From contig JAFSPN010000024.1 in NCBI GenBank assembly GCA_017442875.1, positions 7,143 through 71,142 of the forward strand: DNA of 64,000 nt. Reading direction: 5' to 3'. Source of the DNA: Bacilli bacterium (GTDB lineage: Bacteria > Bacillota_I > Bacilli_A > RFN20 > CAG-826). The position numbers and the translations under genes are program-made. The notes below the pieces were generated by a model. It did not search any database and had not been told where the DNA came from. It saw only the letters and a list, made by a program, of their open reading frames with translations. Below are positions 21,374-39,308 of this stretch, one piece after another; position 1 is the first letter of the stretch; each line of letters begins with the position of its first letter.

Positions 21374-21402
21374 TTAACATTATTAAAATAAGCGATTATG
21401 AT
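21374..21402 (+). promoter_or_regulatory. Putative sigma70-type promoter of the thiamine leader
   Basis: TTAACA-17 nt-TATGAT. Confidence 0.4.
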
Positions 21403-21404
21403 TA

Positions 21405-21495
21405 TTGACGGGAGCTGAACGAAATTCGGCTGAGAGGGTTCTTCTTGGAACCGACCGTACCTGATCTAGGTAATTCTAGCGGAGGGAACTTTTTT
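21405..21495 (+). promoter_or_regulatory. TPP (THI-box) riboswitch
   Basis: Contains GGGAGC...GGCTGAGAGG...ACCGACCGTACCTGATCTAGGTAATTCTAGCGGAGGGAA, which matches the conserved CUGAGA and ACCUGAUCUGGAUAAUGCCAGCG..GGGA cores. Confidence 0.85.
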
Positions 21496-21512
21496 ATTTA
21501 AATGTTCTTCCT

Positions 21513-21541
21513 CCCCTCATCGTGTTTGAGGGTTTTATTTT
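21513..21541 (+). terminator. Riboswitch expression-platform terminator
   Basis: CCCTCA-tcgtgtt-TGAGGG hairpin followed by TTTTATTTT, immediately before the RBS GGAGG of the downstream gene. Confidence 0.65.
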
Positions 21542-21551
21542 GGAGGTTATT

Positions 21552-22610
21552 ATGAAAAACACATCAAAACTAGTCACCACACTTTGTGAAATTGGTATCT
21601 TTGCCGCTCTTGGATTTGTATTAGATGAATTGCAAGGCATTATTTTCAAAGGTGTTTTCCCAAATGGTGGTTCAATTGGCTTTGCGATGATTGCTGTATT
21701 AATCATTGCTTTTAGACGCCGCTATGTTTGGCAAGCCTTACTAGCTGGCTTAATTATCGGATTGCTTGATATAGCTACAAGCGCTTATATCATTCATCCA
21801 GTTCAATTACTATTGGATTATGTCTTACCTTACATGGTTGTAGGCTTTGCTGGTATATTCAAAATTTTCTTTGATAGAAGCGAAAGCAAAGGGATGAAAA
21901 TATTGTGGCTTATCGTTGGCACAGTCGTCGGCGGCATGTTCAAATTCTTATCCCATTATTTAGCGGGCGTATTCTTCTGGTCTGATCCAAGCGCATTTGC
22001 TTGGGGTTTAGGTAATATGAGCGCACCTTTATATTGCTTTGTTTATAACATTGCTTTCATCGGTCCATCCATTGTATTAACTGGTGCCTTGATAACAGTT
22101 CTATTCATTAGAGCGCCTCAAGTGTTTGTTCCTAAATATGACGCTACAGATGAGAATCTTAAGAACGTCATTAATCCATTCAAGATTGTTCTCACAGTTG
22201 GCACAATTGCGTTTGGTTTGTTCGTCTTTATTTTCTACTTAATCAAATACGTAAATAGTTATGAATCATATGTTGACGGCAATGCGTTTGGCTATGACTT
22301 TGATCCTGATAGTATGGTAATTTTTGTACTTGGATTTTTCCTCGCTATCATGGGCGTAAATAACCTTGTTAAATATTTCAAAGATAGATTTTCTTACGTC
22401 TCATATAGTGCAGCATTATCCACCATTATATTGGTCTCCATGATTTATGATATTGCCAGATTAATTAGGATGTACGTCAAAGGAAAAGACCCAACATTAT
22501 ATTGGATCTGGTTCGTTATTGGATTGCTAAGTTTAGGCGGCGCTTTGACTTTCTTTATTATCTCTTTTGTCAAAAGAAAAAAAGAGCAACAATTAGAATC
22601 AAATATTTGA
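21552..22610 (+). CDS. thiT: ThiT-like thiamine ECF S-component fused to an extra C-terminal 4-TM domain
   Basis: ATG 21552 follows GGAGG. Residues 1 to about 195 align by eye with ThiT (..EIGIFAALGFVL.., RRR.., LLDYV.P, HYLAGVFFW). Residues about 196-352 are additional TM helices of unknown family. Confidence 0.75.
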   Translation: MKNTSKLVTTLCEIGIFAALGFVLDELQGIIFKGVFPNGGSIGFAMIAVLIIAFRRRYVWQALLAGLIIGLLDIATSAYIIHPVQLLLDYVLPYMVVGFAGIFKIFFDRSESKGMKILWLIVGTVVGGMFKFLSHYLAGVFFWSDPSAFAWGLGNMSAPLYCFVYNIAFIGPSIVLTGALITVLFIRAPQVFVPKYDATDENLKNVINPFKIVLTVGTIAFGLFVFIFYLIKYVNSYESYVDGNAFGYDFDPDSMVIFVLGFFLAIMGVNNLVKYFKDRFSYVSYSAALSTIILVSMIYDIARLIRMYVKGKDPTLYWIWFVIGLLSLGGALTFFIISFVKRKKEQQLESNI

Positions 22611-25218: not shown

Positions 25219-26073
25219 TTATTCTTCGTTTAATCCGTCGTTAATGAATAAGATACCGAGAGTTTGAGGACCGCAGTGACTTGTAATCGTTGCCCCAGCG
25301 GTTGTCTCATAAATTGTCTTGAAACCGCGTTTTCTTAAAGCATCGATGGCCACCGCAACCATTTCTGGTGTTGCTAGTGTGTGGGTCACAAACGCCACAG
25401 ATAAATCTGGATTAGCAAATTGTTCTAATGTATCACGACAATATGCTTCAATAACTTGGCTCTTACGGCCAATATACTTTTTAGCAGGTGACATTTTACC
25501 ATCCGAAACGATGATTTGTGGTTTGATTCTAAGGATTGCAGCACCGAATCTTAATAAGCCAGAACATCTACCACCCTTATGCAAATATTCAAGGGTTTGA
25601 ATGACGAAACTAGCCTGAACATAAGGGATACGTGCATTTACTTTATCGACGATTTCTTTTGGCTGTAAGCCTTTTTTCACTAACTTCGCAGCATAGATTA
25701 CTTCAAGAGCAATACCAGTCGATAAACTGCGTGAGTCAATGATATAAACGTTTTCAAACTTTTTAGCAGCGTTAATCGCTTGTGAACAAGAAGTGGATAT
25801 TTCTGAACTTAGTGAAATATGGATGATTGCCTCATATCCTTGATCAAGAAGATTTTGGAAATATTCGCGATATTGGAATTCATTCACCGCGCTTGTGCGT
25901 GGGAGAATCTTATTTTTATCAACATAATCAAAGATATCTTGTGAATTAATTTCACCATCTAAATAAGCGGTTTCGCCCAATAAAACAGTGAATGGAATGA
26001 CGTGTACGTCATATTGCTTAATTAATTCTTTTGAGAGATCTAATGTTGATTCAGCGGAAATAGCAATTTTCAT
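25219..26073 (-). CDS. DegV-family fatty-acid-binding protein
   Basis: 284 aa with typical DegV layout (MKIAI..ST.DL ... SLSSEISTS ... GGR). Confidence 0.85.
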   Translation of the reverse strand: MKIAISAESTLDLSKELIKQYDVHVIPFTVLLGETAYLDGEINSQDIFDYVDKNKILPRTSAVNEFQYREYFQNLLDQGYEAIIHISLSSEISTSCSQAINAAKKFENVYIIDSRSLSTGIALEVIYAAKLVKKGLQPKEIVDKVNARIPYVQASFVIQTLEYLHKGGRCSGLLRFGAAILRIKPQIIVSDGKMSPAKKYIGRKSQVIEAYCRDTLEQFANPDLSVAFVTHTLATPEMVAVAIDALRKRGFKTIYETTAGATITSHCGPQTLGILFINDGLNEE

Positions 26074-26092
26074 AACCGCCTAAATTGTAGGC

Positions 26093-26127
26093 AAAAAAAA
26101 CACATAAGTCTAGTACTTATGCATTTT
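26093..26127. terminator. Hairpin terminator between the ABC operon and degV
   Basis: CATAAGT-ctagt-ACTTATG hairpin flanked by an A8 run upstream and a T6 run downstream. Confidence 0.5.
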
Positions 26128-26134
26128 TTATATT

Positions 26135-27163
26135 TTAATCGCCGAATATCGCTGAGTCCGCAAGCATATCGTTCTTGCTATTTGTTACGAACATATCAAG
26201 CAGTTTTTCGATTGTTAATTTTTGTTTTTCTTCACCTTTGATATCCGCGACCACTCTTCCTTTGCTCATCATGATTAAGCGATTACCATATTTAATCGCA
26301 TCTTTCATATTATGAGTAATCATAATTGTGGTTAATTGATTCTCTTTAACGATTCTATCGGTTGTTTCTAAAACCTTTTCTGCTGTCTTTGGATCTAAAG
26401 CCGCGGTGTGTTCATCAAGCAAGAGAACTGGCTTTGTGACGTCATAACTACGGAAACTAGAATCACGTACCCCTTTAATTTCTTTTAATTTAAGTTTCTT
26501 TTCTTCTTTGCTTAAAGATGTGTTGCTTTCGATTTCCTTTTTGGAAGCATTATATTCTTCAATAATTTTGTTAAAGGCTTGATCGATTTCTTCTTTTAAA
26601 AAGTTTTTATCACCAGCGGAGAAACGGACATAATCTTTCTTAATTTGACGAGGAGATGGATGATGTCTAATCGTCGCCATAAGAAGGGTCAAAGCTTGTC
26701 TTTGACCACCAGAAAGTAAGCCAACCTTTTGATATAGTTTATTCTCTAGCCCTAAATCAAGCGTTTTAAGCTCGCTAGTGAAATATTCGACATCTTCCTT
26801 ACGATAGGACCATTTAAATAAAGAACGCCTCTGTCCGCGCCCGAATGCGAGGGCAAGGTTTTCGATCACTGTCATATCCGCGGCGGTACCGACCATTGGA
26901 TCTTGGAAAACACGACCAAAGTATTGGGCTTTTTTGTGTTCGGATACTAAACTGACGTCTTCGTCATCTAATAGAACCATACCACTATCAGGTTTGATAC
27001 TACCGGCAATAATGTTCATTAATGTGGATTTGCCCGCACCATTACCGCCGATTACTGTGATAAAGTCGCCTTCTTTTAATGTGAGATTGACATTATCAAG
27101 AGCGATTGTCTCACTGGCAGTACCTGGGTTAAATTTCTTTTTAATGTTTCTTAATTCAAGCAT
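26135..27163 (-). CDS. ABC transporter ATP-binding protein (COG1101-type) with a large internal insertion
   Basis: Walker A GGNGAGKST, signature LSGGQRQ, Walker B LLLDEHTAALD. About 75 extra residues lie between the signature and Walker B. Confidence 0.9.
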   Translation of the reverse strand: MLELRNIKKKFNPGTASETIALDNVNLTLKEGDFITVIGGNGAGKSTLMNIIAGSIKPDSGMVLLDDEDVSLVSEHKKAQYFGRVFQDPMVGTAADMTVIENLALAFGRGQRRSLFKWSYRKEDVEYFTSELKTLDLGLENKLYQKVGLLSGGQRQALTLLMATIRHHPSPRQIKKDYVRFSAGDKNFLKEEIDQAFNKIIEEYNASKKEIESNTSLSKEEKKLKLKEIKGVRDSSFRSYDVTKPVLLLDEHTAALDPKTAEKVLETTDRIVKENQLTTIMITHNMKDAIKYGNRLIMMSKGRVVADIKGEEKQKLTIEKLLDMFVTNSKNDMLADSAIFGD

Positions 27164-27165
27164 AA

Positions 27166-28116
27166 TTAACCCTCCACGTCCTGACTCTTTTTCATTTTGC
27201 GGTTCGCTAAACGCTTTTTAAAGTCATCATAATAATGGGACTTAATATATGGCACGCCTAAGAAGAGAGCCACCACAACTGCAGCGAGCATCTTTAAGAA
27301 GTCGGTATCCATACCGATAAATACAACAGTCGAGAAAATGACATAGTAGATAATGCCACCGACGACAACAGACGCCATTCTTAAACCAAAGTTTGGTGAA
27401 ATCTTTGAGAATATCGCGTGACCGATAACTACGGAGCATAGACCGATGACAATCGCGCCTCTACCCATATTGATATCAGCGAAGCCTTGATATTGGGCTA
27501 ATAAGCCACCCGCTAAAGCGACAATGCCGTTAGAAATCATTAAACCTAAAACGATATTGAACTTGGTGTTAATGCCTTGAGCTCTAGCCATCTTTTGATT
27601 GTTACCAGTGGCTCTAATAGAAGCACCAAGTTGAGTGCCAAAGAAAATATAAAGTAAAGCCACAATAATTGCGACAGCCAGGAATAATATCCATAAGGCG
27701 TTATATTTATCTAGTTGTGACACTAGAACTGTTGTTGTTCTAGCGTTAACCGATATATTAGCCGCGCCACTAGCGATCTTTAAATTAATCGACCAGCAAG
27801 CCAGTTGCGTTAAGATACCCGCTAAAATAGGCGGAATGCCTAATAATGTATGTAATAGACCTGTGACCAAGCCGCAGAGTAATCCAGCGACAAATCCTAA
27901 TAATAAACCAACAGCGAAGTTGCCACCACTTTTAATAAAGACAGCACAAACAATACCGCCCATCGCAAACGAACCATCGACAGTTAAATCAGCGACATCA
28001 AGCACTTTATAAGTAATAAAGACACCTAAGGCCATTAAACCCCAGATAATGCCGAGATTAACTGAACCTGGTAAAGATTGTACATAGTTTAATAAATAAT
28101 TAAGGAATTGTTGCAT
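27166..28116 (-). CDS. ABC transporter permease (COG4120-type)
   Basis: 316 aa polytopic protein, adjacent and co-directional with the ATPase and the SBP. Confidence 0.85.
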   Translation of the reverse strand: MQQFLNYLLNYVQSLPGSVNLGIIWGLMALGVFITYKVLDVADLTVDGSFAMGGIVCAVFIKSGGNFAVGLLLGFVAGLLCGLVTGLLHTLLGIPPILAGILTQLACWSINLKIASGAANISVNARTTTVLVSQLDKYNALWILFLAVAIIVALLYIFFGTQLGASIRATGNNQKMARAQGINTKFNIVLGLMISNGIVALAGGLLAQYQGFADINMGRGAIVIGLCSVVIGHAIFSKISPNFGLRMASVVVGGIIYYVIFSTVVFIGMDTDFLKMLAAVVVALFLGVPYIKSHYYDDFKKRLANRKMKKSQDVEG

Positions 28117-28128
28117 ATGCTTTTATTC

Positions 28129-29112
28129 TTATTGGATTGCGACATAACCATCTGGCACGGTAAGACCTAATCTTTCACAGATGGTTGGATTGTATTTTTT
28201 AACTGGTGCAGCATCATATTGCACTTTCATTTTTGAAATATGGGCGCCTTCTTTGATGATCTTAGCAGCCATTTCACCTGTTTTTACACCGATGTTGTAG
28301 TAGCTAATGGAAAGGGTGAACGCACCACAGCCTTTGCAAATACCTTCTTCACCACAGAACACTTTAAGTCCAGCAGCGGAGCATTTTGCGTCGATTGTTT
28401 CAACATTCGATGCACATGTGTTATCTGTTGGGATGAATAAAGCATCTACTTTATCTGCGACCATCTTATCTAATTGAGAAGGAAGGTCATTGGAATCTGA
28501 GAATGAATATTTATTTATTGAAATACCAGATTTTTGTTTATTTAATTCTTTTGAGATACTGTCGACTTGGTATTTAGAGTTTGCCTCTGCGGAGCAATAT
28601 AAGATACCAAACTTCTTAGCTTCAGGGAATAATTCAACCATCATCTTCGCTTGTTCATCTAATGGCGCTAAATCGCTTGTGCCAGAGACGTTGCCACCGA
28701 CGGTGTCGACAAAATTCTTGATATTTAAAGCTGTACCATAGTCAGTAATTGAAGTTCCAAGAACTGGGATATCCACTGTTGAGTTAGCAGCAGCTTGTAA
28801 GGCTGGTGTGGCATTAGCCATGATTAAGTCGACTTTCTTACTAACAAATGTGTTGGCAATTGTGACACATGCTGCGGAATCGCCAGCGGCATTTTGTTCA
28901 TCAAATACCACTTTATCGCCAAGTTCTTCTTTAAGTTTGTCTTTAAAACCTTTTGTAGCGGCATCTAAAGCTTCGTGAGTAACTAACTGGCAAATACCGA
29001 CTTGATACGTCTTATTTGGATCCCAACTAATAACGGGATCAATGTTTTTGCCACATCCTGTGACAAGTAACGCAGATGTGGATAATAGAGCAAATAATTT
29101 AGTGTGTTTCAT
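28129..29112 (-). CDS. ABC transporter substrate-binding lipoprotein (COG2984 / ABC_sub_bind-type)
   Basis: MKHTKLFALLSTSALLVTGCG contains a lipobox. ATG 29112 lies 9 nt after GAGGAGG (29122-29128). The family is the one proposed in the literature as aromatic amino-acid (TrpXYZ-like) importers. Confidence 0.8.
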   Translation of the reverse strand: MKHTKLFALLSTSALLVTGCGKNIDPVISWDPNKTYQVGICQLVTHEALDAATKGFKDKLKEELGDKVVFDEQNAAGDSAACVTIANTFVSKKVDLIMANATPALQAAANSTVDIPVLGTSITDYGTALNIKNFVDTVGGNVSGTSDLAPLDEQAKMMVELFPEAKKFGILYCSAEANSKYQVDSISKELNKQKSGISINKYSFSDSNDLPSQLDKMVADKVDALFIPTDNTCASNVETIDAKCSAAGLKVFCGEEGICKGCGAFTLSISYYNIGVKTGEMAAKIIKEGAHISKMKVQYDAAPVKKYNPTICERLGLTVPDGYVAIQ

Positions 29113-29131
29113 TTCGTTCATCCTCCTCATG

Positions 29132-29249
29132 AAATAAAAATCGGTGTTCGTGACACCAATTAATATCCATTCGTTGAGTTGGTGTCACTGATTAGTTTTC
29201 GGTAATCAATAACACCCAATAGCTAAAAGGCCAAGATTTATTGATTACC
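29132..29249 (-). promoter_or_regulatory. Transcription attenuator: chain of mutually exclusive helices ending in an intrinsic terminator
   Basis: Helix A:B is a 12-bp perfect pairing (29249-29238 with 29212-29201). Helix B':C' is 14 bp (29216-29203 with 29194-29181). Helix C:D is a 10-bp perfect pairing (29188-29179 with 29159-29150). The terminator TTGGTGT-CACGA-ACACCGA is followed by UUUUUAUUU (29159-29132). Confidence 0.6.
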
Positions 29250-29294
29250 TCTTGGATAATAATAGCTATAAAAGTAAAAAAATGCTCTTTTCAT
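29238..29294 (-). CDS. Leader peptide MKRAFFYFYSYYYPRGNQ (18 aa, Phe/Tyr-rich)
   Basis: ATG 29294 to TAA 29238-29240, translated by hand. Eight of nine consecutive codons are Phe or Tyr, and the stop codon lies inside helix segment A. No clear SD; the 5' UTR would be about 10 nt. Confidence 0.55.
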   Translation of the reverse strand: MKRAFFYFYSYYYPRGNQ

Positions 29295-29310
29295 AATTTA
29301 CTTGTCCATA

Positions 29311-29338
29311 ATTGTATCACTTATTGAAAAGATGGCAA
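29311..29338 (-). promoter_or_regulatory. Putative promoter of the ABC-transporter leader
   Basis: TTGCCA (29338-29333), 16-nt spacer, then the extended -10 TGaTACAAT (29319-29311). Confidence 0.5.
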
Positions 29339-29374
29339 TAAAAAAGACAAAACCAGGTACAAATGCACCTGGTT
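29338..29374 (-). terminator. Rho-independent terminator after the GH3 module 1
   Basis: Minus strand AACCAGGT-gcatttgt-ACCTGGTT hairpin followed by TTGTCTTTTTT. Confidence 0.6.
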
Positions 29375-29398
29375 AAGATTAAAGATTAATTCAAACAC

Positions 29399-30148
29399 CT
29401 ATTCTGGTTGAGCGAAATCAACGTCAGAAATAACAGTGAGGTTTCTGATATCTGGCATTATATAAAGACAATCATTTTTACTATCGGTATCATTATAGGC
29501 ACTTGTTGTGAGTGTGATGGTATTTTCTCCCCTGATTAAGAAGGTGTCCTTAAAGATAAGGCTTTGGAACCCATCACGGTCGGTTGACAAACTGAGTTTT
29601 TCCGTTTTAAGTTCTAACTTATTCACTTGAATTTTAATCTTATCAGTGAGGTTCTCAATTTCTTGATAGACACCCGCATTGTTGCGCCAGTTATTCCTTA
29701 GGCCAATTTCAATGTCGGAAAGGCCATAACTCTCGGTCTTGATGGTAAAGGTAATAGCACCACCCATTCTATCTAGACCGGTAATGTATTCCGCCAATTT
29801 AGAATCATCGCCATCCATCTTTTTATACTCTTGAGCTTTGTCAGTACTTAGCGGAGCAACACTAGCATCTCTAGCGTATAAAATAAGTGAATTTTTATAT
29901 TCAGATTTTGAAGAAGCAACTTTTTCACCGGCCTCGTCATAGGCAATGTATTCATTGTCGAATAAAACTTCTTCTGGTAAAGCTGGGAATGAAGCCCTAA
30001 TCTCTTCGGCGTTCTTTTCATACTGCACCAAGTAATTGTTATATTGAACTCTTGATACTAGAAAATTAACACCAGCAATAGTCAGAGAGACAAAAGCAAT
30101 ACCAATAACGACTATTTTTGTCAAATGTTTAACAAAGAAGTTTTTCAT
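29399..30148 (-). CDS. Membrane-anchored extracellular protein (beta-sandwich/CBM-like C-terminus?), unknown function
   Basis: 249 aa with an N-terminal TM anchor. GGAGGC RBS. It starts 3 nt after the GH3 stop. Confidence 0.5.
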   Translation of the reverse strand: MKNFFVKHLTKIVVIGIAFVSLTIAGVNFLVSRVQYNNYLVQYEKNAEEIRASFPALPEEVLFDNEYIAYDEAGEKVASSKSEYKNSLILYARDASVAPLSTDKAQEYKKMDGDDSKLAEYITGLDRMGGAITFTIKTESYGLSDIEIGLRNNWRNNAGVYQEIENLTDKIKIQVNKLELKTEKLSLSTDRDGFQSLIFKDTFLIRGENTITLTTSAYNDTDSKNDCLYIMPDIRNLTVISDVDFAQPE

Positions 30149-30151
30149 ACG

Positions 30152-33100
30152 TTATTCTGCCTCCTTTTCATCTTTCGCTTTTCCAAAAGGTAAGAATGGT
30201 TTTGCTATCAAGAATACGCCGATAGCAATTGCGCCATAAACAATAGCGTCCGCAGCCACAATTGCCGGTTTCCACCATTGCCATGATTGTTTTGTTTCAG
30301 CAACAACAACCGCTTCGCTTGGATCGGCAGACGCATTGTATGTCAAATTCTTATATAAAGCATGACAATAAGCATAGACGTATTCTTTAATTGCTTGTCT
30401 CATTCTGTGTTGAACACGTGCGGTAGAAGAAGCAGATAATGCAACGACTGGGCTATCGTCGCCACCCAAGTTAATATTGCCACCTGTTCTTAAGTTAGCA
30501 GCACTATCCATGTTTTCTTCGTTTTCGGTCATATCAGTGATGATGGCGCCTTTAAAGCCCCATTCATTTCTTAAAATGCCAGTCATTAAGGCTTCGTTAC
30601 CACCAGCCCAAATGCCACCTAATCTATTGAAGGAAGTCATAATACCGGTGGAGTCACCATATTTGACGCCTTCTTCGAATGTTCTTAAATAAATCTCACG
30701 CAAAGCTTGTTCACTAAGCCATGTATATAAACCCATTCTGTTGAAATCTTGATCGTTAACAACAAAGTGCTTCATGAATGAAGTTCTTCCATAGACGCCT
30801 AATCCCTTAATGATATTTCCAACGACTCTACCAGAAAGATATGGATCTTCAGATTGATATCCGGAGTTACGGCCACCATATGGAGATCTATGGATATTAC
30901 ATGCTGGAGAATATAAAGCATCTTTACCAGCTGGGCCCATGTCGTTACCTTCTGATTTACCAAACATATAAGCAAGAACTTGGTTCCATGTTTGGGCTAA
31001 GACGGTTGAACCAGGATAACCGACGCAACTAGTACTTGGTGCCATGACACCATTACCGACTTGAGAAGCACCTTCACCATGTTGGAAAGCACCATCGTCG
31101 TTGGTTCTTAAACCAATAGCAGCAATGCCTGGACTTTTATATTGTGTGTCCATAGTGAGAATTCTAATCGCTGTACCTTTAGCATCTCTATCACCAAGTG
31201 GAACTTGGTCTAAGACTTCATCCCATAATGGATCATCCCAGTATTCTGGATTGCCAAGTTTTTCACCAACGGCAGTTAAACGACCACCTTCCATGACTTT
31301 ATGGGATGTGGCGGTGCTACCCCAGGTTGGTTTTGACGTTGGAACATCGTTACCAAAATAATCTTTAGTGGCATTGTCCCAAGCGTTTGCCATTTCGGCT
31401 GTATAAACACTCTTTGGAGCAACGATACCATTAGCCCTATTAAGTAATTTATCTGTCCAAGGCTTATTTTCTTCCACTTCTGTTAATAATTCAGGGAAAT
31501 TATTGCGGTGAATTAACTCAATACCTTCACCTTCTTCTCCGCCTTGATCAACGGAACTGCCATCAATTGGCATTTCCTCATAGGCAGTATCACCAGTAAA
31601 TCTATTTTCAACCGTATTGCCAGTTTTTTCATCTTTATCAATCAAGATGTCTTGGCTGACTTTATAAGAAAGGGTATTTTTAGCCATATCTTTTAAATGG
31701 TGAGCATCGGTCATGAGTTTAAGTTCATATGTACCGTGTTCCATTTCATAGCCACAGAAATCATTGCCGTTATCATCGTAGCAATCATAGGATTTAAATT
31801 CTTTACAATCGACTTCGATTTCCACATTTGCTTCTTGCAAAGGTTTTAATTCTGGAGTCTTAGCGTACGCCACTAATTTAACAGATGATTTTTCAATACC
31901 ACCATCGTAGTATGGAGCGGTTAAAAACACTTCGATAACATCTTTGCCAGAAACGGGGCCAGCGTTTTTGACGTTAACTGTTAAATTGATTTTATCTTCG
32001 TTTGTAATATTGCTTCCTGGGGCAATGTCAACATCCGTTAGAGTCCAATCAAAAGTTGTGTATGACATGCCGAATCCAAATGGAAATTGCACGACATTGT
32101 CATAACCACCATAATCGTCCCAGAATCCTTCAGCATCTGCTGTTTCAAACCAACGGTAACCAACATAAATGCCTTCGTTATATTCGACGTAGCAAGATGT
32201 TTGATAGAAATCACCACCAGCTGTGCCCATTGTTCTACATTCTTGGGCTTTACCGCCGATATATTGATGGGTGAATTTTGTGTTCCCACGGTAGTATGTA
32301 ATGTTATATTCGTGGTTATAAGGATAAGTATCGGTTAAGTGACCAGATGGAGAAGCGTCACCCCAAATAATTTCTGGAATAGATAAAGCGCCTTGGACAC
32401 CTGTAGCGCCGACGCTTATGCAAGCATCTATGCCTGGAATATCTTCCAAGAAGTCTAATTGCATTGCGTTTGTAGAGTTGATAACAACGATAACATTTTC
32501 AAAATCTTCCCCAAGTTTTGTCAATGTGTCTTGTTCTTCTTTTGAAATTTGCAAATATGTTCTCTCGTCATCTCTTGCTTGACCATTTGTCTTCACTTGA
32601 TAATGTGGGCAGTCAGAGTTTTCACCAGCATATCTAGAAATAACCATGAAAGCGGTGTCTGAATACCCTCTAGCATTATCATAAATCTGTTGATACTCTG
32701 CTTCCGTTTCTAAAGACGGCTCTCTAATTTGGTAAGCACCCAAGCATTGGAAAATGGTATTTTCAACACCAACAGGTGATTTCCATTTTTTGTAATAAGT
32801 AGGTAATTCTTGATTTACTTCGATGCCATAGTGTTCTAATGCACTATTCAAATCATAGGATGTTTGGCCATCAGTACCAACCATTTCAGATCCAGAAGAC
32901 ATGATATACCAGTCTACGGAACCATGACCAAAAACATTAACACGATTAATAGATTTTGATAATGGTAAAGTGCTGTCTTCATTGCGAAGCAATACTATGC
33001 CTTCTCGCTCAATATCTCTCGCTAATTGGTTACCCATGTTACGAGCGGCTTCCGCTTCAGCTGAATGCGGTTCACCGTTAGGAGCAAGGTGGTGAGAAAT

Positions 33101-33229
33101 AACAGCCGAGTAACGGTTAAAAGCAAGATCATTGCCAATTCCAAGGCCCACACCAACTGCAATCATGGCAAGAAGTGCAGCACCCGAAACAATGAGCCTT
33201 ACTTTGTTTTTAGCAAAAAAATTGCCCAT
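30152..33229 (-). CDS. Glycoside hydrolase family 3 (beta-glucosidase/xylosidase-like), domain-permuted, TM helix at both termini
   Basis: 1025 aa. The GH3 C-domain start (IVLLRNEDSTLPL) is near the N-terminus. FGFGMSYTTF is present. The GH3 N-domain motifs KHFVVNDQ..NR and WGFKGAIITD (nucleophile Asp) are in the C-terminal third. Both ends are hydrophobic. Confidence 0.9.
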   Translation of the reverse strand: MGNFFAKNKVRLIVSGAALLAMIAVGVGLGIGNDLAFNRYSAVISHHLAPNGEPHSAEAEAARNMGNQLARDIEREGIVLLRNEDSTLPLSKSINRVNVFGHGSVDWYIMSSGSEMVGTDGQTSYDLNSALEHYGIEVNQELPTYYKKWKSPVGVENTIFQCLGAYQIREPSLETEAEYQQIYDNARGYSDTAFMVISRYAGENSDCPHYQVKTNGQARDDERTYLQISKEEQDTLTKLGEDFENVIVVINSTNAMQLDFLEDIPGIDACISVGATGVQGALSIPEIIWGDASPSGHLTDTYPYNHEYNITYYRGNTKFTHQYIGGKAQECRTMGTAGGDFYQTSCYVEYNEGIYVGYRWFETADAEGFWDDYGGYDNVVQFPFGFGMSYTTFDWTLTDVDIAPGSNITNEDKINLTVNVKNAGPVSGKDVIEVFLTAPYYDGGIEKSSVKLVAYAKTPELKPLQEANVEIEVDCKEFKSYDCYDDNGNDFCGYEMEHGTYELKLMTDAHHLKDMAKNTLSYKVSQDILIDKDEKTGNTVENRFTGDTAYEEMPIDGSSVDQGGEEGEGIELIHRNNFPELLTEVEENKPWTDKLLNRANGIVAPKSVYTAEMANAWDNATKDYFGNDVPTSKPTWGSTATSHKVMEGGRLTAVGEKLGNPEYWDDPLWDEVLDQVPLGDRDAKGTAIRILTMDTQYKSPGIAAIGLRTNDDGAFQHGEGASQVGNGVMAPSTSCVGYPGSTVLAQTWNQVLAYMFGKSEGNDMGPAGKDALYSPACNIHRSPYGGRNSGYQSEDPYLSGRVVGNIIKGLGVYGRTSFMKHFVVNDQDFNRMGLYTWLSEQALREIYLRTFEEGVKYGDSTGIMTSFNRLGGIWAGGNEALMTGILRNEWGFKGAIITDMTENEENMDSAANLRTGGNINLGGDDSPVVALSASSTARVQHRMRQAIKEYVYAYCHALYKNLTYNASADPSEAVVVAETKQSWQWWKPAIVAADAIVYGAIAIGVFLIAKPFLPFGKAKDEKEAE

Positions 33230-34483: not shown

Positions 34484-34879
34484 TGGTGGAGCCGAGGAGA
34501 ATTGAACCCCTGTCCCGAGAAGGCTCTTCAATAACGTCTACAGTTTAGACGATATTAAGATTTAGCATGCTTTCGTATATCGACTCACTAGGGCATGCGA
34601 GATAACCTAAGTTTCGGTGCTTGTAACTTATCGACTCATCACACCTATCCTTTTGGTATGACAACCTACCTAAGCGTGAAAGGATAAAACCTTAGGGGAT
34701 GCTCTGCCCGGCGCCTAGCGTCGGAATCCTATATCGGTTGCTTAAATTAAGCTAAGCAGAGTTGTTGAGCTCTAGGAGCTCTCATATAACTGTTGTCAGT
34801 TATTTTTATTTTGATGATAACGTCATCACTCGACTGCAGTTAGAGCCTAACCATTCCCGGTCGAAACCAATACGACCCC
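34484..34879 (-). ncRNA. ssrA: tmRNA (transfer-messenger RNA)
   Basis: 5' GGGGTCGTATTGGTTTCGAC pairs with the 3' ...GGGGTTCAATTCTCCTCGGCTCCACCA (tRNA-Ala-like acceptor with G3:U, a T-arm and CCA). An internal tag-like frame ends ...TTA GCT TAA. Confidence 0.9.
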
Positions 34880-36293: not shown

Positions 36294-39200
36294 TTATCCG
36301 GCTACTTCTTCGTCTTTTTTCTCTTTTTTGTCAAAGACGAGAATTGTTAAAGCGAACATCGTGATTGCGGCGGCCGCTAAGACACCAACGCCGATATCGA
36401 CGCCAACAACAACTTTCTTCCACCATGGATTCTTATTTCTAGCGATGAGAGCTTCATCGATAGTAAGTTCTTTCATGGATGATTGAAGCATAGCGTACAT
36501 GATATTCTTGTTGGCTTGTTTGACAAGACGGAACAAATATCCATCATCGCCAACGGCGTTAGCGATACCTCTACTACCGTCTAAACAGAACATTTGTGTA
36601 CCACCATAGAGCATAGCTTTGGTATTTGTATAGGCACTGTTTTCGCCTTGGAGAGCGTCATCGATAACAAAGCCTTCATAACCCCATTCGCCTCTAAGGA
36701 CATCTTCAACAAGTGTTCTATGGCAAGCAGCATATCTACAACCGATTCTGTTATAGGATGTCATGATGCCTAAGCCTTCACCTTTGGTTAAAGCGCCTTC
36801 GAATGGTCTTAAGTAGATTTCACGAATGGCTTGTTCGTTACAGTATGTAGCAACACCTTGTCTATTGGTTTCTTGGTTATTTAAGAAGCAGTGCTTAATG
36901 TTCATGATTAAGCCTTTCTTTCTTGCTGCACCAACAATGTTGGCAGCGCAGTAATAATTGAAGACAGCGTCTTCTGACATATATTCGGAAGCACGTGAAC
37001 CATAAGGTGTTCTATTGATGTTACAACCTGGAGCGTTAACACAAGCAACACCACAGAATAAACATTCTTCAGCGTAGAAATCGCCGAACTTTTTTTGAAT
37101 TTCATGGTCCCAAGAACCGGAATAGATAGCACCGGTTGCGAAACCAGTAGCTTTTCTCTTATCACCAAATTGGAAGGTAGCAAGTAAGCCTTCTGGACCT
37201 TCAGTAACAGAGTTATCTGGTTTTAAGACTTTTTCAACCGCACTAATACCACGGTTATCGAGCATAGAAATGGTCATGTCTTTTAATGACATTTGAGAAA
37301 CGAATTCTTCCCAAATTTCTTCACCGTCCATTGCTTCACCAGTTTTTGGGTGAATAGCGTCACCATGGAGTGGAATATCAACCATATCTTTGAAATAGAT
37401 TTTATATGGGTTACCATTAGCATCTTCGAGCACGCGCTCATATTCAATGCCTTTTAATTCAGCATAAGTTGGAGCATCGGCCGGCTTGGTGTATTCATTG
37501 CCCATATTCATCGCTGCTGACATACGAGAGTTAATGGTCAAACCAGTTAATTTGGTTGGGAAGGTGGTTTGCCAGTTGTTACGGGTTAAGTATTCAAACT
37601 TAAATGATGAATCACACCAATAATTCAAATCAGCGTCATCAAATTTATTTGTGACTTCTTCATCGGTATAATGTGATTTTTTAAATGTTTCATAGTCTTC
37701 TGCAACATCGACTTTAATAGCGGTATTGACACCAGCTGTATAAGCGTTGCCATCGTGGTCTACTAAACCAGTAGCGCCTTTGAGTGCCAAAACGTTGTTA
37801 AGAGCTTCATGGGCACCATTACCAATAGCAAAGTAATAATCGCCAGCTTCAAGAATATATTGTTTATTAACTCTCCAATCGTAAGAGGCTAAGAAGTATC
37901 TATCGAATTTAACAGTCACTGTTTCGCTAGCGTTTGCGGCTAATTCAGATGTTTTTTCATAACCACATAATTGGATAGCGGATTTTTCTAATTTGTTTGT
38001 AACATCCCAATCTGTGTATGGAAGTTGAGCGTAAATTTGAACTGATGATTTAGCAGGATAATCACCAATGTTTTTAACTTTAACTTTAACTTCGTATTGG
38101 TCTGTCTTGGTATTTAATTTGACTTCTTCGATTGTTTGTTCAAATTCGGTATATGATAAGCCGAAACCAAATGGATAAGCGACTTCGCGATCATATGCCC
38201 AATTTGTTTCGCCATCATAACAACCAGCACTACCGTTAGCGTTACCACGATTTAAGATGCAGTCTTCATATCTGGTTTCGTAATATTTATAACCAACGTA
38301 AATACCTTCTTTATAAGTGACATAACCTTTTTCTCTGTCGAAGTCACCAGCGCTTTCTTTACCACTGAATCTAATGTCACCAAAGTTTTGGTAAGCGGCT
38401 GAGTTAGAAGCGTGGGCTGAGAATGTATCAGGAGCATGGCCAGATGGGCTTAATTGTGTAGCGCCTTCTTCATTTCCGTTTTTGCCCATTAAAACATCAA
38501 CGACACCGGCTAAAGAATAATAGCCAGGAACGCCGACGAACAAAACGGCATCAACACCATATTGTGGATCATCGACCCAGTTACAACTCATTGGCATAGC
38601 GCCATTCAATAGAACAATTGTCTTACTGAATTTGCCTGAGTTTTTAATCATTTTGAGAAGTTCAGCTTCATCAGAATTCAAATCTAAAAGGCCAGTTGCT
38701 GGGTCTTCATTTTCGGTACCGACTCTTGTAAAGGTCACAATTGCCGCATCGCGATAATCGTTCTCATAGCTTGCTTTAATAGCGTCTGTGTACTTGCTAG
38801 GCGCAAGTTCTTTGACGTCGTTAACTGATGGATAACCGGCAGTTGTGTTTAGCTTCCAAACTGTTGGGTTGACGGTGAAGCCACGTAATTCAAAGGCTTC
38901 GTTAAGGTGAACGACCAACTTATCATTTGGAGCCGCACCACCAGCACCCGATCTTAAGATCATGTTAGCGCTGTTACCACCGAAGATTGTGATACGTCTT
39001 TCGTTTTCTTCGAGAGGAAGAACTGGATTGCCATTTTCATCTTCGTTTTTAAGCAAAACAGAGCCTTCTCTTTCTTCTTGGACACAGAAATCATAGGAAT
39101 CTTTGATGAGTTTCATACATCCTTCGTTCGTTAATTTTCCTTCTACGGCGTAGGAAGAAAAGTTGGAATCGGAGTATGGATTCTTGATACCAAGAAGGTC

Positions 39201-39308
39201 ATTGATTAGCATTTTGTATTCATCCGTGATGGCAGTAACCGCTAAAAAGAATGTGGTAAGCAAAATGCCGACCGCGGATAAACCTAACCAAAGTTTTGAT
39301 TTTTTCAT
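36294..39308 (-). CDS. Glycoside hydrolase family 3, domain-permuted, TM helix at both termini (paralog)
   Basis: 1004 aa with SVLLKNEDENGNPVLPL, FGFGLSYTEF, KHCFLNNQETNRQG and WGYEGFVIDD, in the same permuted order as 30152-33229. Confidence 0.9.
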   Translation of the reverse strand: MKKSKLWLGLSAVGILLTTFFLAVTAITDEYKMLINDLLGIKNPYSDSNFSSYAVEGKLTNEGCMKLIKDSYDFCVQEEREGSVLLKNEDENGNPVLPLEENERRITIFGGNSANMILRSGAGGAAPNDKLVVHLNEAFELRGFTVNPTVWKLNTTAGYPSVNDVKELAPSKYTDAIKASYENDYRDAAIVTFTRVGTENEDPATGLLDLNSDEAELLKMIKNSGKFSKTIVLLNGAMPMSCNWVDDPQYGVDAVLFVGVPGYYSLAGVVDVLMGKNGNEEGATQLSPSGHAPDTFSAHASNSAAYQNFGDIRFSGKESAGDFDREKGYVTYKEGIYVGYKYYETRYEDCILNRGNANGSAGCYDGETNWAYDREVAYPFGFGLSYTEFEQTIEEVKLNTKTDQYEVKVKVKNIGDYPAKSSVQIYAQLPYTDWDVTNKLEKSAIQLCGYEKTSELAANASETVTVKFDRYFLASYDWRVNKQYILEAGDYYFAIGNGAHEALNNVLALKGATGLVDHDGNAYTAGVNTAIKVDVAEDYETFKKSHYTDEEVTNKFDDADLNYWCDSSFKFEYLTRNNWQTTFPTKLTGLTINSRMSAAMNMGNEYTKPADAPTYAELKGIEYERVLEDANGNPYKIYFKDMVDIPLHGDAIHPKTGEAMDGEEIWEEFVSQMSLKDMTISMLDNRGISAVEKVLKPDNSVTEGPEGLLATFQFGDKRKATGFATGAIYSGSWDHEIQKKFGDFYAEECLFCGVACVNAPGCNINRTPYGSRASEYMSEDAVFNYYCAANIVGAARKKGLIMNIKHCFLNNQETNRQGVATYCNEQAIREIYLRPFEGALTKGEGLGIMTSYNRIGCRYAACHRTLVEDVLRGEWGYEGFVIDDALQGENSAYTNTKAMLYGGTQMFCLDGSRGIANAVGDDGYLFRLVKQANKNIMYAMLQSSMKELTIDEALIARNKNPWWKKVVVGVDIGVGVLAAAAITMFALTILVFDKKEKKDEEVAG

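Follow-up and report, generated by a model that had tools for sequence, protein, structure and literature searches.

What does the leader in front of an ATP-binding cassette (ABC) transporter operon sense in an uncultured member of the Bacilli? The window, by which we mean the whole stretch of 64,000 nucleotides (nt) that was analysed (GenBank assembly GCA_017442875.1, contig JAFSPN010000024.1, positions 7,143 to 71,142 of the forward strand), carries this leader on its minus strand (29338-29110, read 5' to 3'), directly before the gene of a substrate-binding lipoprotein (SBP). Based on comparative and folding analyses, we consider it likely that the leader is a ribosome-mediated leader-peptide attenuator which senses tyrosine (Tyr) and phenylalanine (Phe). 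Both its geometry and its codons favour Tyr over Phe, and the predicted signal is mainly tyrosyl-tRNA, with phenylalanyl-tRNA in a secondary role. All coordinates given here are window positions, and labels such as L034, L081 and P0016/L091 denote related loci that were compared with the window leader. The leader is laid out as follows.

29311..29338, minus strand: promoter with -35 box TTGCCA, a 16-nt spacer and an extended -10 box TG-n-TACAAT, matching the consensus at 10 of 12 positions
ATG at 29294 to TAA at 29240-29238, minus strand: leader-peptide upstream open reading frame (uORF) of 18 codons plus TAA, encoding MKRAFFYFYSYYYPRGNQ
29256..29282, minus strand: regulatory codon run, codons 5-13, reading F F Y F Y S Y Y Y
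29219..29269, minus strand: hairpin P1, in which ATAGCTA (29269-29263) pairs with TAGCTAT (29225-29219) and CCAAGA (29255-29250) with TCTTGG (29236-29231)
29238..29249, minus strand: segment A, GGTAATCAATAA, which holds the uORF stop codon
29201..29216, minus strand: segments B' (29216-29203) and B (29212-29201), GGTGTTATTGATTACC, with A or C' as alternative partners
29179..29194, minus strand: segments C' (29194-29181) and C (29188-29179), TAATCAGTGACACCAA, with B' or D as alternative partners
29150..29159, minus strand: segment D, a strand of the antiterminator helix C:D that lies within the 5' arm of the terminator
29139..29161, minus strand: intrinsic terminator hairpin D:E
29132..29140, minus strand: terminator U-tract, UUUUUAUUU
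29122..29128, minus strand: Shine-Dalgarno (SD) sequence GAGGAGG of the binding-protein gene, 9 nt upstream of its ATG at 29112

Phe or Tyr occupies eight of the nine consecutive codons 5-13 of the uORF, and the segments allow two mutually exclusive folds, A:B + C:D as the antiterminator and B':C' + D:E as the terminator. An earlier note on this DNA, made from the letters only, had given coordinates and sequences for the promoter, the uORF, the segments, the terminator and the ribosome-binding site, and every one of them was confirmed on the minus strand. It had also described a four-helix attenuator. The alternative helices are indeed present, but hairpin P1 and the lack of an SD sequence before the uORF had been overlooked, and the element is better described as a six-segment switch like the his leader. 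The 5' strand of P1 (about -13 kcal/mol) is formed by Tyr codons, and the hairpin encloses segment A together with the stop codon. The GAGGAGG sequence of the SBP gene is not sequestered by the terminator. Since the gene upstream (29399-30148) ends with a terminator of its own (29374-29351), the leader is an independent transcription unit. The same promoter spacing was found in L081, L084, L087, L092 and L095, where a -35 box TTGCGA or TTGACC is followed by a -10 box TGnTAnAnT that lies 16 nt before the uORF ATG. Between the -10 box and the uORF ATG there is a conserved CAAG(A/T)AA stretch, seen in the window (29295-29310), in these five loci and in L093.

A chance coincidence of an AT-rich reading frame with hairpins in an intergenic region has next to no probability. 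The window has a G+C content of 37%, hence TTT and TAT codons are common in it. Nevertheless, when ATG-initiated reading frames of 9-60 codons with at least six Phe or Tyr in nine codons were collected, the uORF was the only one in the whole window, and among 100 first-order Markov simulations of the window a run of eight in nine was reached in none and seven in nine in 10. The energies of the isolated helices are -17.9 kcal/mol for the extended A:B, -16.6 for B':C', -12.4 for C:D and -9.0 for D:E. Compared with dinucleotide shuffles, A:B, B':C' and C:D lie 3.3-6.6 standard deviations lower and D:E lies 3.2 lower, while the whole leader adopts the terminator state, at -51 kcal/mol (z = -4.66), so that the z-scores of the leader and its four helices span -3.2 to -6.6. 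A coincidence is already refuted by the comparative data, in which the element is kept with covariation in 36 distinct leaders and always has the same gene family downstream.

In the case of close SBP homologues (84-60% identity), upstream look-ups all gave the same leader type. A metagenome scan, whose motif combined the stop codon with the 3' strand of P1, matched 61 loci; 17 of these had no Phe/Tyr-rich uORF and were set aside, most of them being chance-like and a few being cut at a contig end. The scan and the earlier look-ups together provided 52 loci with a Phe/Tyr-rich uORF that ends inside segment A. Wherever the downstream gene could be read (42 of 42), it encoded a PF04392 SBP lipoprotein starting 68-141 nt past the uORF stop. 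Identity of these 42 proteins to the window SBP ranged from 34 to 100%, and the leader was far better conserved than the proteins. Leaders of the window type were present in the Bacilli metagenome-assembled genome (MAG) GCA_017619815.1 (L094) and in the Erysipelotrichaceae MAG GCA_012837435.1 (L096; order Erysipelotrichales), and no such leader was found in P0016/L091, a high-GC relative. At L110, which has about 1x coverage, the leader was present and an intact downstream reading frame was absent. LigA of the window is 88-89% identical to proteins from Bacilli MAGs, and the host is accordingly placed in the class Bacilli, as an uncultured member represented solely by metagenome assemblies.

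Structure statistics were calculated on an alignment of 36 distinct leaders. This is the comparison that the earlier note had proposed as a check, and the uORF, the position of its stop inside A and both folds proved to be conserved, with compensatory changes in B':C', C:D and D:E. In the terminator state (P1 + B':C' + D:E), 95.5% of the positions were paired and eight pairs had changed on both sides, compared with 28-48% pairing when the partners were slid by 1-3 columns. The corresponding values for the antiterminator state (A:B + C:D) were 94.1% paired and four pairs changed on both sides, three of them in C:D, with 20-61% after sliding. Considering the helices one by one, P1 was 96-97% paired, D:E was 95% paired with five pairs changed on both sides, and C:D was 92.8% paired with three compensatory pairs (AU 21 / GC 13; GC 27 / AU 5; GC 12 / AU 7). 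Compensation in B':C' is exemplified by a pair that is AU in 18 leaders, GU in 10 and GC in 6. Positions common to two alternative helices change compatibly with both; for example, an A-to-G change in B gives a U.G pair with the stop-codon U in A and a G-C pair with C'.

The codons of the uORF carry a signal of their own. None of the 17 distinct uORFs has its frame interrupted between the ATG and the stop inside A, which is TAA or TGA. At codons 5-9 and 11-13, the eight aromatic positions, almost only TTT, TTC, TAT and TAC occur (5 of 136 codons are non-aromatic), and changes at these positions are synonymous or exchange Phe and Tyr, including the two-step change between TAT and TTC. Thus the conservation of the aromatic codon run, which had also been put forward as a check, is found at the level of single codons. 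The peptide varies, with MKKAFNYYYYYYFPRGNR and MKQAYKVYAYYYYYYPRSNQ among its variants. Its C-terminal PRGNQ is explained by RNA pairing, in the inner stem of P1 and in A, and the property that has been preserved is the aromatic, mostly Tyr, codon content. We infer translation of the uORF solely from this codon-level conservation.

To compare the two states, transcripts were folded in ViennaRNA with a positioned ribosome, where the nucleotides covered by the ribosome (the A-site codon plus 10 nt) were masked and the transcript was taken as it exists before synthesis of segment E; the model assumes the ribosome footprint and approximates folding by equilibrium. In the window leader, an A-site at any of codons 7-12 (Y F Y S Y Y) gave A:B + C:D, namely the antiterminator. 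With the ribosome absent, or with the A-site at codon 5, at codon 13 or at the stop, B':C' formed and D was left free, which permits termination. When the A-site was placed at the eighth or seventh codon before the stop, both of which are Tyr codons, A:B + C:D formed in 35 of the 36 leaders, and more upstream Phe/Tyr positions gave the antiterminator in 24-32 of the 36. B':C' formed in 21 of the 36 leaders when the ribosome sat at the stop, and in 20 when none was present. Both statements of the earlier note on this point therefore hold in the folding model: stalling on the Phe/Tyr codons favours read-through, in the window and in nearly all leaders at the two Tyr codons, and a ribosome at the uORF stop favours the terminator, cleanly in the window and less uniformly among the relatives. 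Because codons 7-12 comprise four Tyr, one Phe and one Ser codon, Tyr is the main predicted signal.

Folding of the minus-strand leader and comparison of its two states, as that note had advised, also indicated how the balance is set. A purely thermodynamic switch was rejected, since full-length equilibrium folds never adopted the antiterminator, even with the ribosome mask, and switching appeared only on the transcript that precedes E. The terminator state is always the full-length minimum, and the switch therefore resembles the classical systems in being kinetic. An intact P1 put the terminator state ahead by about 13 kcal/mol. When the 5' strand of P1 was held under a stalled ribosome, the two states were nearly equal at full length (about -30 kcal/mol each), and without P1, before E exists, the antiterminator was ahead with -31.9 versus -23.2 kcal/mol. 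Based on these energies, P1 is predicted to tip the balance between the two folds.

From these data, we propose the following course of events. Transcription would start about 10 nt upstream of the uORF. If the uORF is not translated, or if the ribosome reaches the stop inside A, segment A would be caged in P1 or covered by the ribosome. With A unavailable, B' would pair with C' as soon as C' emerges, leaving D free to pair with E, and upon formation of D:E the RNA polymerase would terminate at the U-tract (29140-29132). When charged Tyr-tRNA (or Phe-tRNA) is scarce, the ribosome would stall at codons 7-12, melting the 5' strand of P1 while A stays exposed and pairs with B. The freed segment C would then pair with D, the terminator would be blocked, and transcription would read through into the operon of the SBP, the permease, the ATPase and possibly a DegV-family gene. 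In this scheme we infer synchrony of ribosome and polymerase, termination at the U-tract and a response to the supply of Tyr and Phe.

Several observations weigh against such a mechanism. Its weakest link is initiation, as no SD sequence precedes the uORF in the window, and the contrast is found within one operon, where the SBP gene has a perfect GAGGAGG. The uORF ATG lies 16 nt past the -10 box, which leaves a predicted 5' untranslated region (UTR) of about 9-10 nt. Likewise, the ATG is 16 nt past the -10 box in L081, L084, L087, L092 and L095 (21 nt in L093), and all window-type leaders examined lack an SD sequence before the uORF and have a 5' UTR of only about 9-14 nt. Pairing in P1 and A constrains much of the uORF 3' half (YSYYYPRGNQ and the stop), and what looks like conservation of the peptide is therefore in part conservation of the RNA. 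Helix A:B is 95% paired, but its changes are one-sided and wobble-compatible only, with no true compensatory pair; weaker support is expected here because coding, A:B and B':C' all constrain this segment. The stem of the terminator, with three G-C pairs and -9 kcal/mol, is modest. A ribosome at the stop still gave C:D in 14 of the 36 leaders in the equilibrium model, and the model therefore depends on the order of co-transcriptional folding. Finally, the RNA polymerase of Bacillus subtilis outruns ribosomes in what is called runaway transcription (PMC13323073), which would disfavour the mechanism unless a pause synchronises ribosome and polymerase.

Some of these observations would suit a terminator/antiterminator switch that is real but set by a trans-acting factor; a small ligand, a tRNA or an RNA-binding protein could attach to the conserved leader, for instance at P1 or at the loop of A. 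The uORF would then be untranslated and its aromatic codons a by-product of a U/A-rich RNA structure. Besides the missing SD sequence and the very short 5' UTR, the position of the uORF 3' half within the conserved P1 and A helices fits this explanation, as does the leader being far more conserved than the genes downstream, which is usual for a ligand- or protein-binding RNA; moreover, sensors of this kind are typical of Firmicutes. However, codons 5-9 lie outside P1, A:B, B':C', C:D and D:E and yet show the restricted codon variation described above, including the two-step changes, in a frame that is always open. The structurally unrelated leaders of Clostridial orthologues, considered below, also bear Phe/Tyr-rich uORFs, and these have strong SD sequences. 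The positions of a ribosome alone reproduce the switch in the folding model. In addition, no Rfam 15 family, T-box included, matched the leader at E<=10 when window positions 28000-30500 were searched, the sole overlapping row being the small RNA SSRC38 at chance level (16.9 bits versus a gathering score of 80). Searches of 11 related loci with permissive Rfam thresholds found no leader or riboswitch family, and a T-box in L034 only. Taken together, we regard a trans-acting factor as unlikely, and ribosome-mediated attenuation as the preferred explanation of the leader.

If the leader responds to Tyr, the genes behind it should handle Tyr. The operon is composed as follows.

28129..29112, minus strand: SBP, PF04392/COG2984 (174.9 bits), with the CD0873-type tyrosine signature Glu255 and Tyr271
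27166..28116, minus strand: ABC permease, PF02653 (113.1 bits)
26135..27163, minus strand: ABC ATPase, PF00005 (80.1 bits)
25219..26073, minus strand: DegV-family gene, possibly co-transcribed

Judging from the lengths of homologues, the ATG at 29112 is probably the real SBP start. No terminator-like site was found between the ATPase gene and the DegV gene, and the next one lies at 25214-25191. With an SBP, a permease and an ATPase in one operon, the locus has the composition of a PF04392/COG2984 aromatic-amino-acid importer. Solved homologues of the SBP were found with phmmer, namely CD0873 (6HNI, E = 4e-43), SP1069 (3LFT, E = 5e-41) and VC_1101 (3LKV, E = 6e-39). CD0873 of Clostridioides difficile binds Tyr, SP1069 binds tryptophan (Trp) and VC_1101 binds Phe; in CD0873, Glu-263 confers Tyr specificity by hydrogen bonding to the Tyr hydroxyl, and Tyr-279 excludes Trp (PMC6816091). 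Glu255 and Tyr271 of the window SBP align with these two residues, and both were present in 50 of the 50 related SBPs examined. The tryptophan equivalog TrpX (NCBIfam NF041285) was rejected, as its score was 226 bits against a cut-off of 390 and position 271 holds Tyr in place of the Gln that accommodates Trp. The proteins belong to one Pfam family and share the Tyr-specificity residues, while the relationship to the solved homologues is distant and the ligand in the window is predicted from sequence. The SBP is thus predicted to be of the tyrosine type, and the controlled operon is most likely a tyrosine ABC importer. This agrees with the hint at Tyr and/or Phe import that the earlier note had read from the leader, as the closest solved homologue binds Tyr and both specificity residues are kept. 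The ABC ATPase is long (342 residues), and Pfam and NCBIfam models match it in two separate stretches, suggesting that about 80 residues are inserted within its nucleotide-binding domain; a length of 340-342 residues is kept in close relatives.

The identity of the operon bears on another explanation, in which general translation stress or a compound that targets the ribosome is what the uORF senses, in the manner of an erm/ABCF-type stalling leader, or in which the uORF encodes a functional small hydrophobic peptide. Among the leader peptides of Firmicutes, those that stall ribosomes without amino-acid specificity are more common (PMC2965389, PMC4191407, PMC9226507), and the peptide sequence here is highly conserved. 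On the other hand, the codon content agrees with the genes under control, which encode an amino-acid importer whose pocket is of the tyrosine type, and it is the aromatic character that has been kept rather than one peptide, as seen from FFYFY, FYYFY, NYYYYYYF and YAYYYYYY. One orthologue, moreover, uses a T-box that is probably Tyr-specific. We therefore consider a stress sensor or a functional peptide very improbable, and Tyr/Phe-sensing attenuation is retained.

Orthologous transporters outside this group are preceded by other leaders. A scan of genome contigs found about 75 orthologues with 55-64% identity, mostly in Clostridia, none of which had a leader of the window type; about 50 of the 75 had no terminator within 220 nt upstream. 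Searching 20 Clostridial loci at Rfam gathering scores identified no known RNA upstream of the SBP genes. In six loci (L029, L030, L037, L062, L068 and L073), an unrelated leader combines a strong SD sequence, a Phe/Tyr-rich uORF, for example MNSIRFAQAYRFYYFYFFTDKKVKVICDAHKRNEA, and a terminator. Most of these six have a hairpin between the aromatic codon run and a purine stretch, and five of them contain a conserved GUGAUUUGUGAUGC (L068 has only UUUUGUGAUGC), which is complementary to the 5' arm and the loop of the terminator. A recurrent 'ICDA' in the Clostridial peptides stems from this conserved RNA segment. When four of the leaders were simulated with a positioned ribosome, L029, L037 and L062 behaved as expected and L030 was ambiguous; one deviation was seen in L062, where the terminator arm stayed paired also when the ribosome was placed at the stop codon. 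A third leader subtype seems to be represented by L038 and L069.

A further sensor was found at L034 (2626-2844), where a T-box scored 83 bits against an Rfam gathering score of 93. The sequence of its specifier loop is GAAAG-UAC-A, in which UAC, a Tyr codon, is probably the specifier, as read from the alignment by eye. This T-box served as a positive control, and T-box (RF00230) control of the window operon was rejected because the window leader gave no match. The Clostridial Phe/Tyr-rich leaders and the L034 T-box thus represent different sensors on orthologous transporters, both indicative of the same signal. We tentatively raise a possibility that seems to us nearly evenly balanced, namely that Tyr sensing by leader-peptide attenuation evolved on two or more independent occasions at orthologous tyrosine importers of Firmicutes, once as the SD-less six-segment leader of uncultured gut Bacilli/Erysipelotrichales and once as the SD-bearing Phe/Tyr-rich leader of Oscillospiraceae and other Clostridia, with a T-box in another lineage, and that the leader is a recombination-stable platform under swapped transporter cassettes.

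Cassette swaps were observed between very close relatives, in the pairs L101 versus L128 and L146 versus L122, which are syntenic with window positions 25219-29340. Within these pairs, the leader and the first 40 or so nt of the SBP gene show 98.4% nucleotide identity over 255 nt, and the DegV flank shows 96.7% over 974 nt. Between the two flanks lie two divergent cassettes, whose identities to the window are about 57-60% versus about 36% for the SBP, about 60-67% versus about 36% for the permease and about 72-74% versus about 55% for the ATPase. Both cassette types retain the tyrosine-signature residues.

How the leader relates to known systems can be seen from the enterobacterial his, pheA (pheL) and pheST (pheM) leaders, in which a short uORF with cognate codons precedes a terminator and an overlapping antiterminator, and the position of the ribosome selects the fold. 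The window leader shares with them the cognate-codon uORF, the mutually exclusive folds and, as predicted, termination when the uORF is untranslated. The likeness to the his leader goes further, since the relay of P1, A:B / B':C' and C:D / D:E is laid out as A:B, C:D and E:F versus B:C and D:E in his. Unlike the enterobacterial leaders, which control biosynthetic or tRNA-synthetase operons, the present one has mostly Tyr codons, an importer as its target, an uncultured Bacilli host and a uORF without an SD sequence. The comparative and folding evidence thus supports the enterobacterial logic that had been suggested for the locus, with his, pheA and pheST as the closest systems. In full-text literature searches, neither a Tyr-rich leader peptide nor the control of a PF04392 transporter by a leader peptide was found to have been described, in keeping with the previous remark that none was known for this family, and to our knowledge no Tyr attenuator has been described. 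An account of how CD0873 is regulated was not found either. What is new lies in the amino acid, the target and the lineage, whereas the mechanism is a known one. The pheL leader is reviewed in PMC3082878 and the general attenuation model in PMC1183508.

Within Firmicutes, leader-peptide attenuation was long thought to be absent (PMC1262725, PMC2965389). Such attenuators are rare in the phylum, yet examples exist: those known comprise histidine (His) leaders of Erysipelotrichales, Peptostreptococcaceae and the B. cereus group (PMC9413887, PMC2965389), the leucine (Leu)-rich ilv-leu attenuator of Staphylococcus aureus (PMC5794164) and the Leu/Phe leader of Lactococcus lactis, RF01743 (PMC2864571). 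They belong to the same phylum and mechanism class as the window leader and include Erysipelotrichales, the order of L096. In contrast, they sense His, Leu or Leu/Phe, the characterised ones control biosynthetic or hisS genes, none has been reported for a PF04392 transporter, and their sequences are unrelated. Tyrosine control in Gram-positive bacteria has been ascribed to T-boxes (PMC1262725), and the same transporter family is T-box-controlled in streptococci, as in TrpXYZ of Streptococcus suis (PMC9382623). The T-boxes of S. suis TrpXYZ and L034 act on the same transporter family, with uncharged cognate tRNA as the signal and terminator versus antiterminator as the output. The sensor of a T-box is a direct contact between tRNA and RNA, whereas that of the window leader is proposed to be the translating ribosome.

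Other features of the window stand apart from the leader. A thiamine pyrophosphate (TPP) riboswitch lies on the plus strand at 21398-21505 (55.3 bits versus a gathering score of 54.3), directly upstream of the reading frame 21522-22610, and a transfer-messenger RNA gene is located on the minus strand at 34484-34879, with the tag peptide DNSYMRAPRAQQLCLA. Two large GH3-family proteins of about 1000 residues are encoded on the minus strand at 30152-33229 and 36294-39308. In the former, the match to the C-terminal domain of Glyco_hydro_3 (residues 78-358) precedes that to the N-terminal domain (residues 736-904). Many relatives also have a GH3 gene in synteny with the leader.

If the proposed mechanism is true, the leader would be the first Tyr-responsive leader-peptide attenuator and the first such control of PF04392/COG2984 importers within the literature searched. 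Classical attenuation requires a ribosome that stays close behind the RNA polymerase, so the conservation of such leaders in Bacilli and Clostridia offers natural test cases in the debate over coupled versus runaway transcription (PMC13323073, PMC7858274). If these elements work, transcription and translation would be synchronised in these Firmicutes, and a 5'-proximal AUG without an SD sequence would initiate well enough to report tRNA charging. Small puzzles in themselves are the SD-less start of a regulatory uORF and the swapping of cassettes under a fixed leader. As a cis-encoded annotation, the leader would mark dozens of uncharacterised transporter operons of the gut and rumen as importers of tyrosine, possibly also of Phe, in agreement with their pocket residues.

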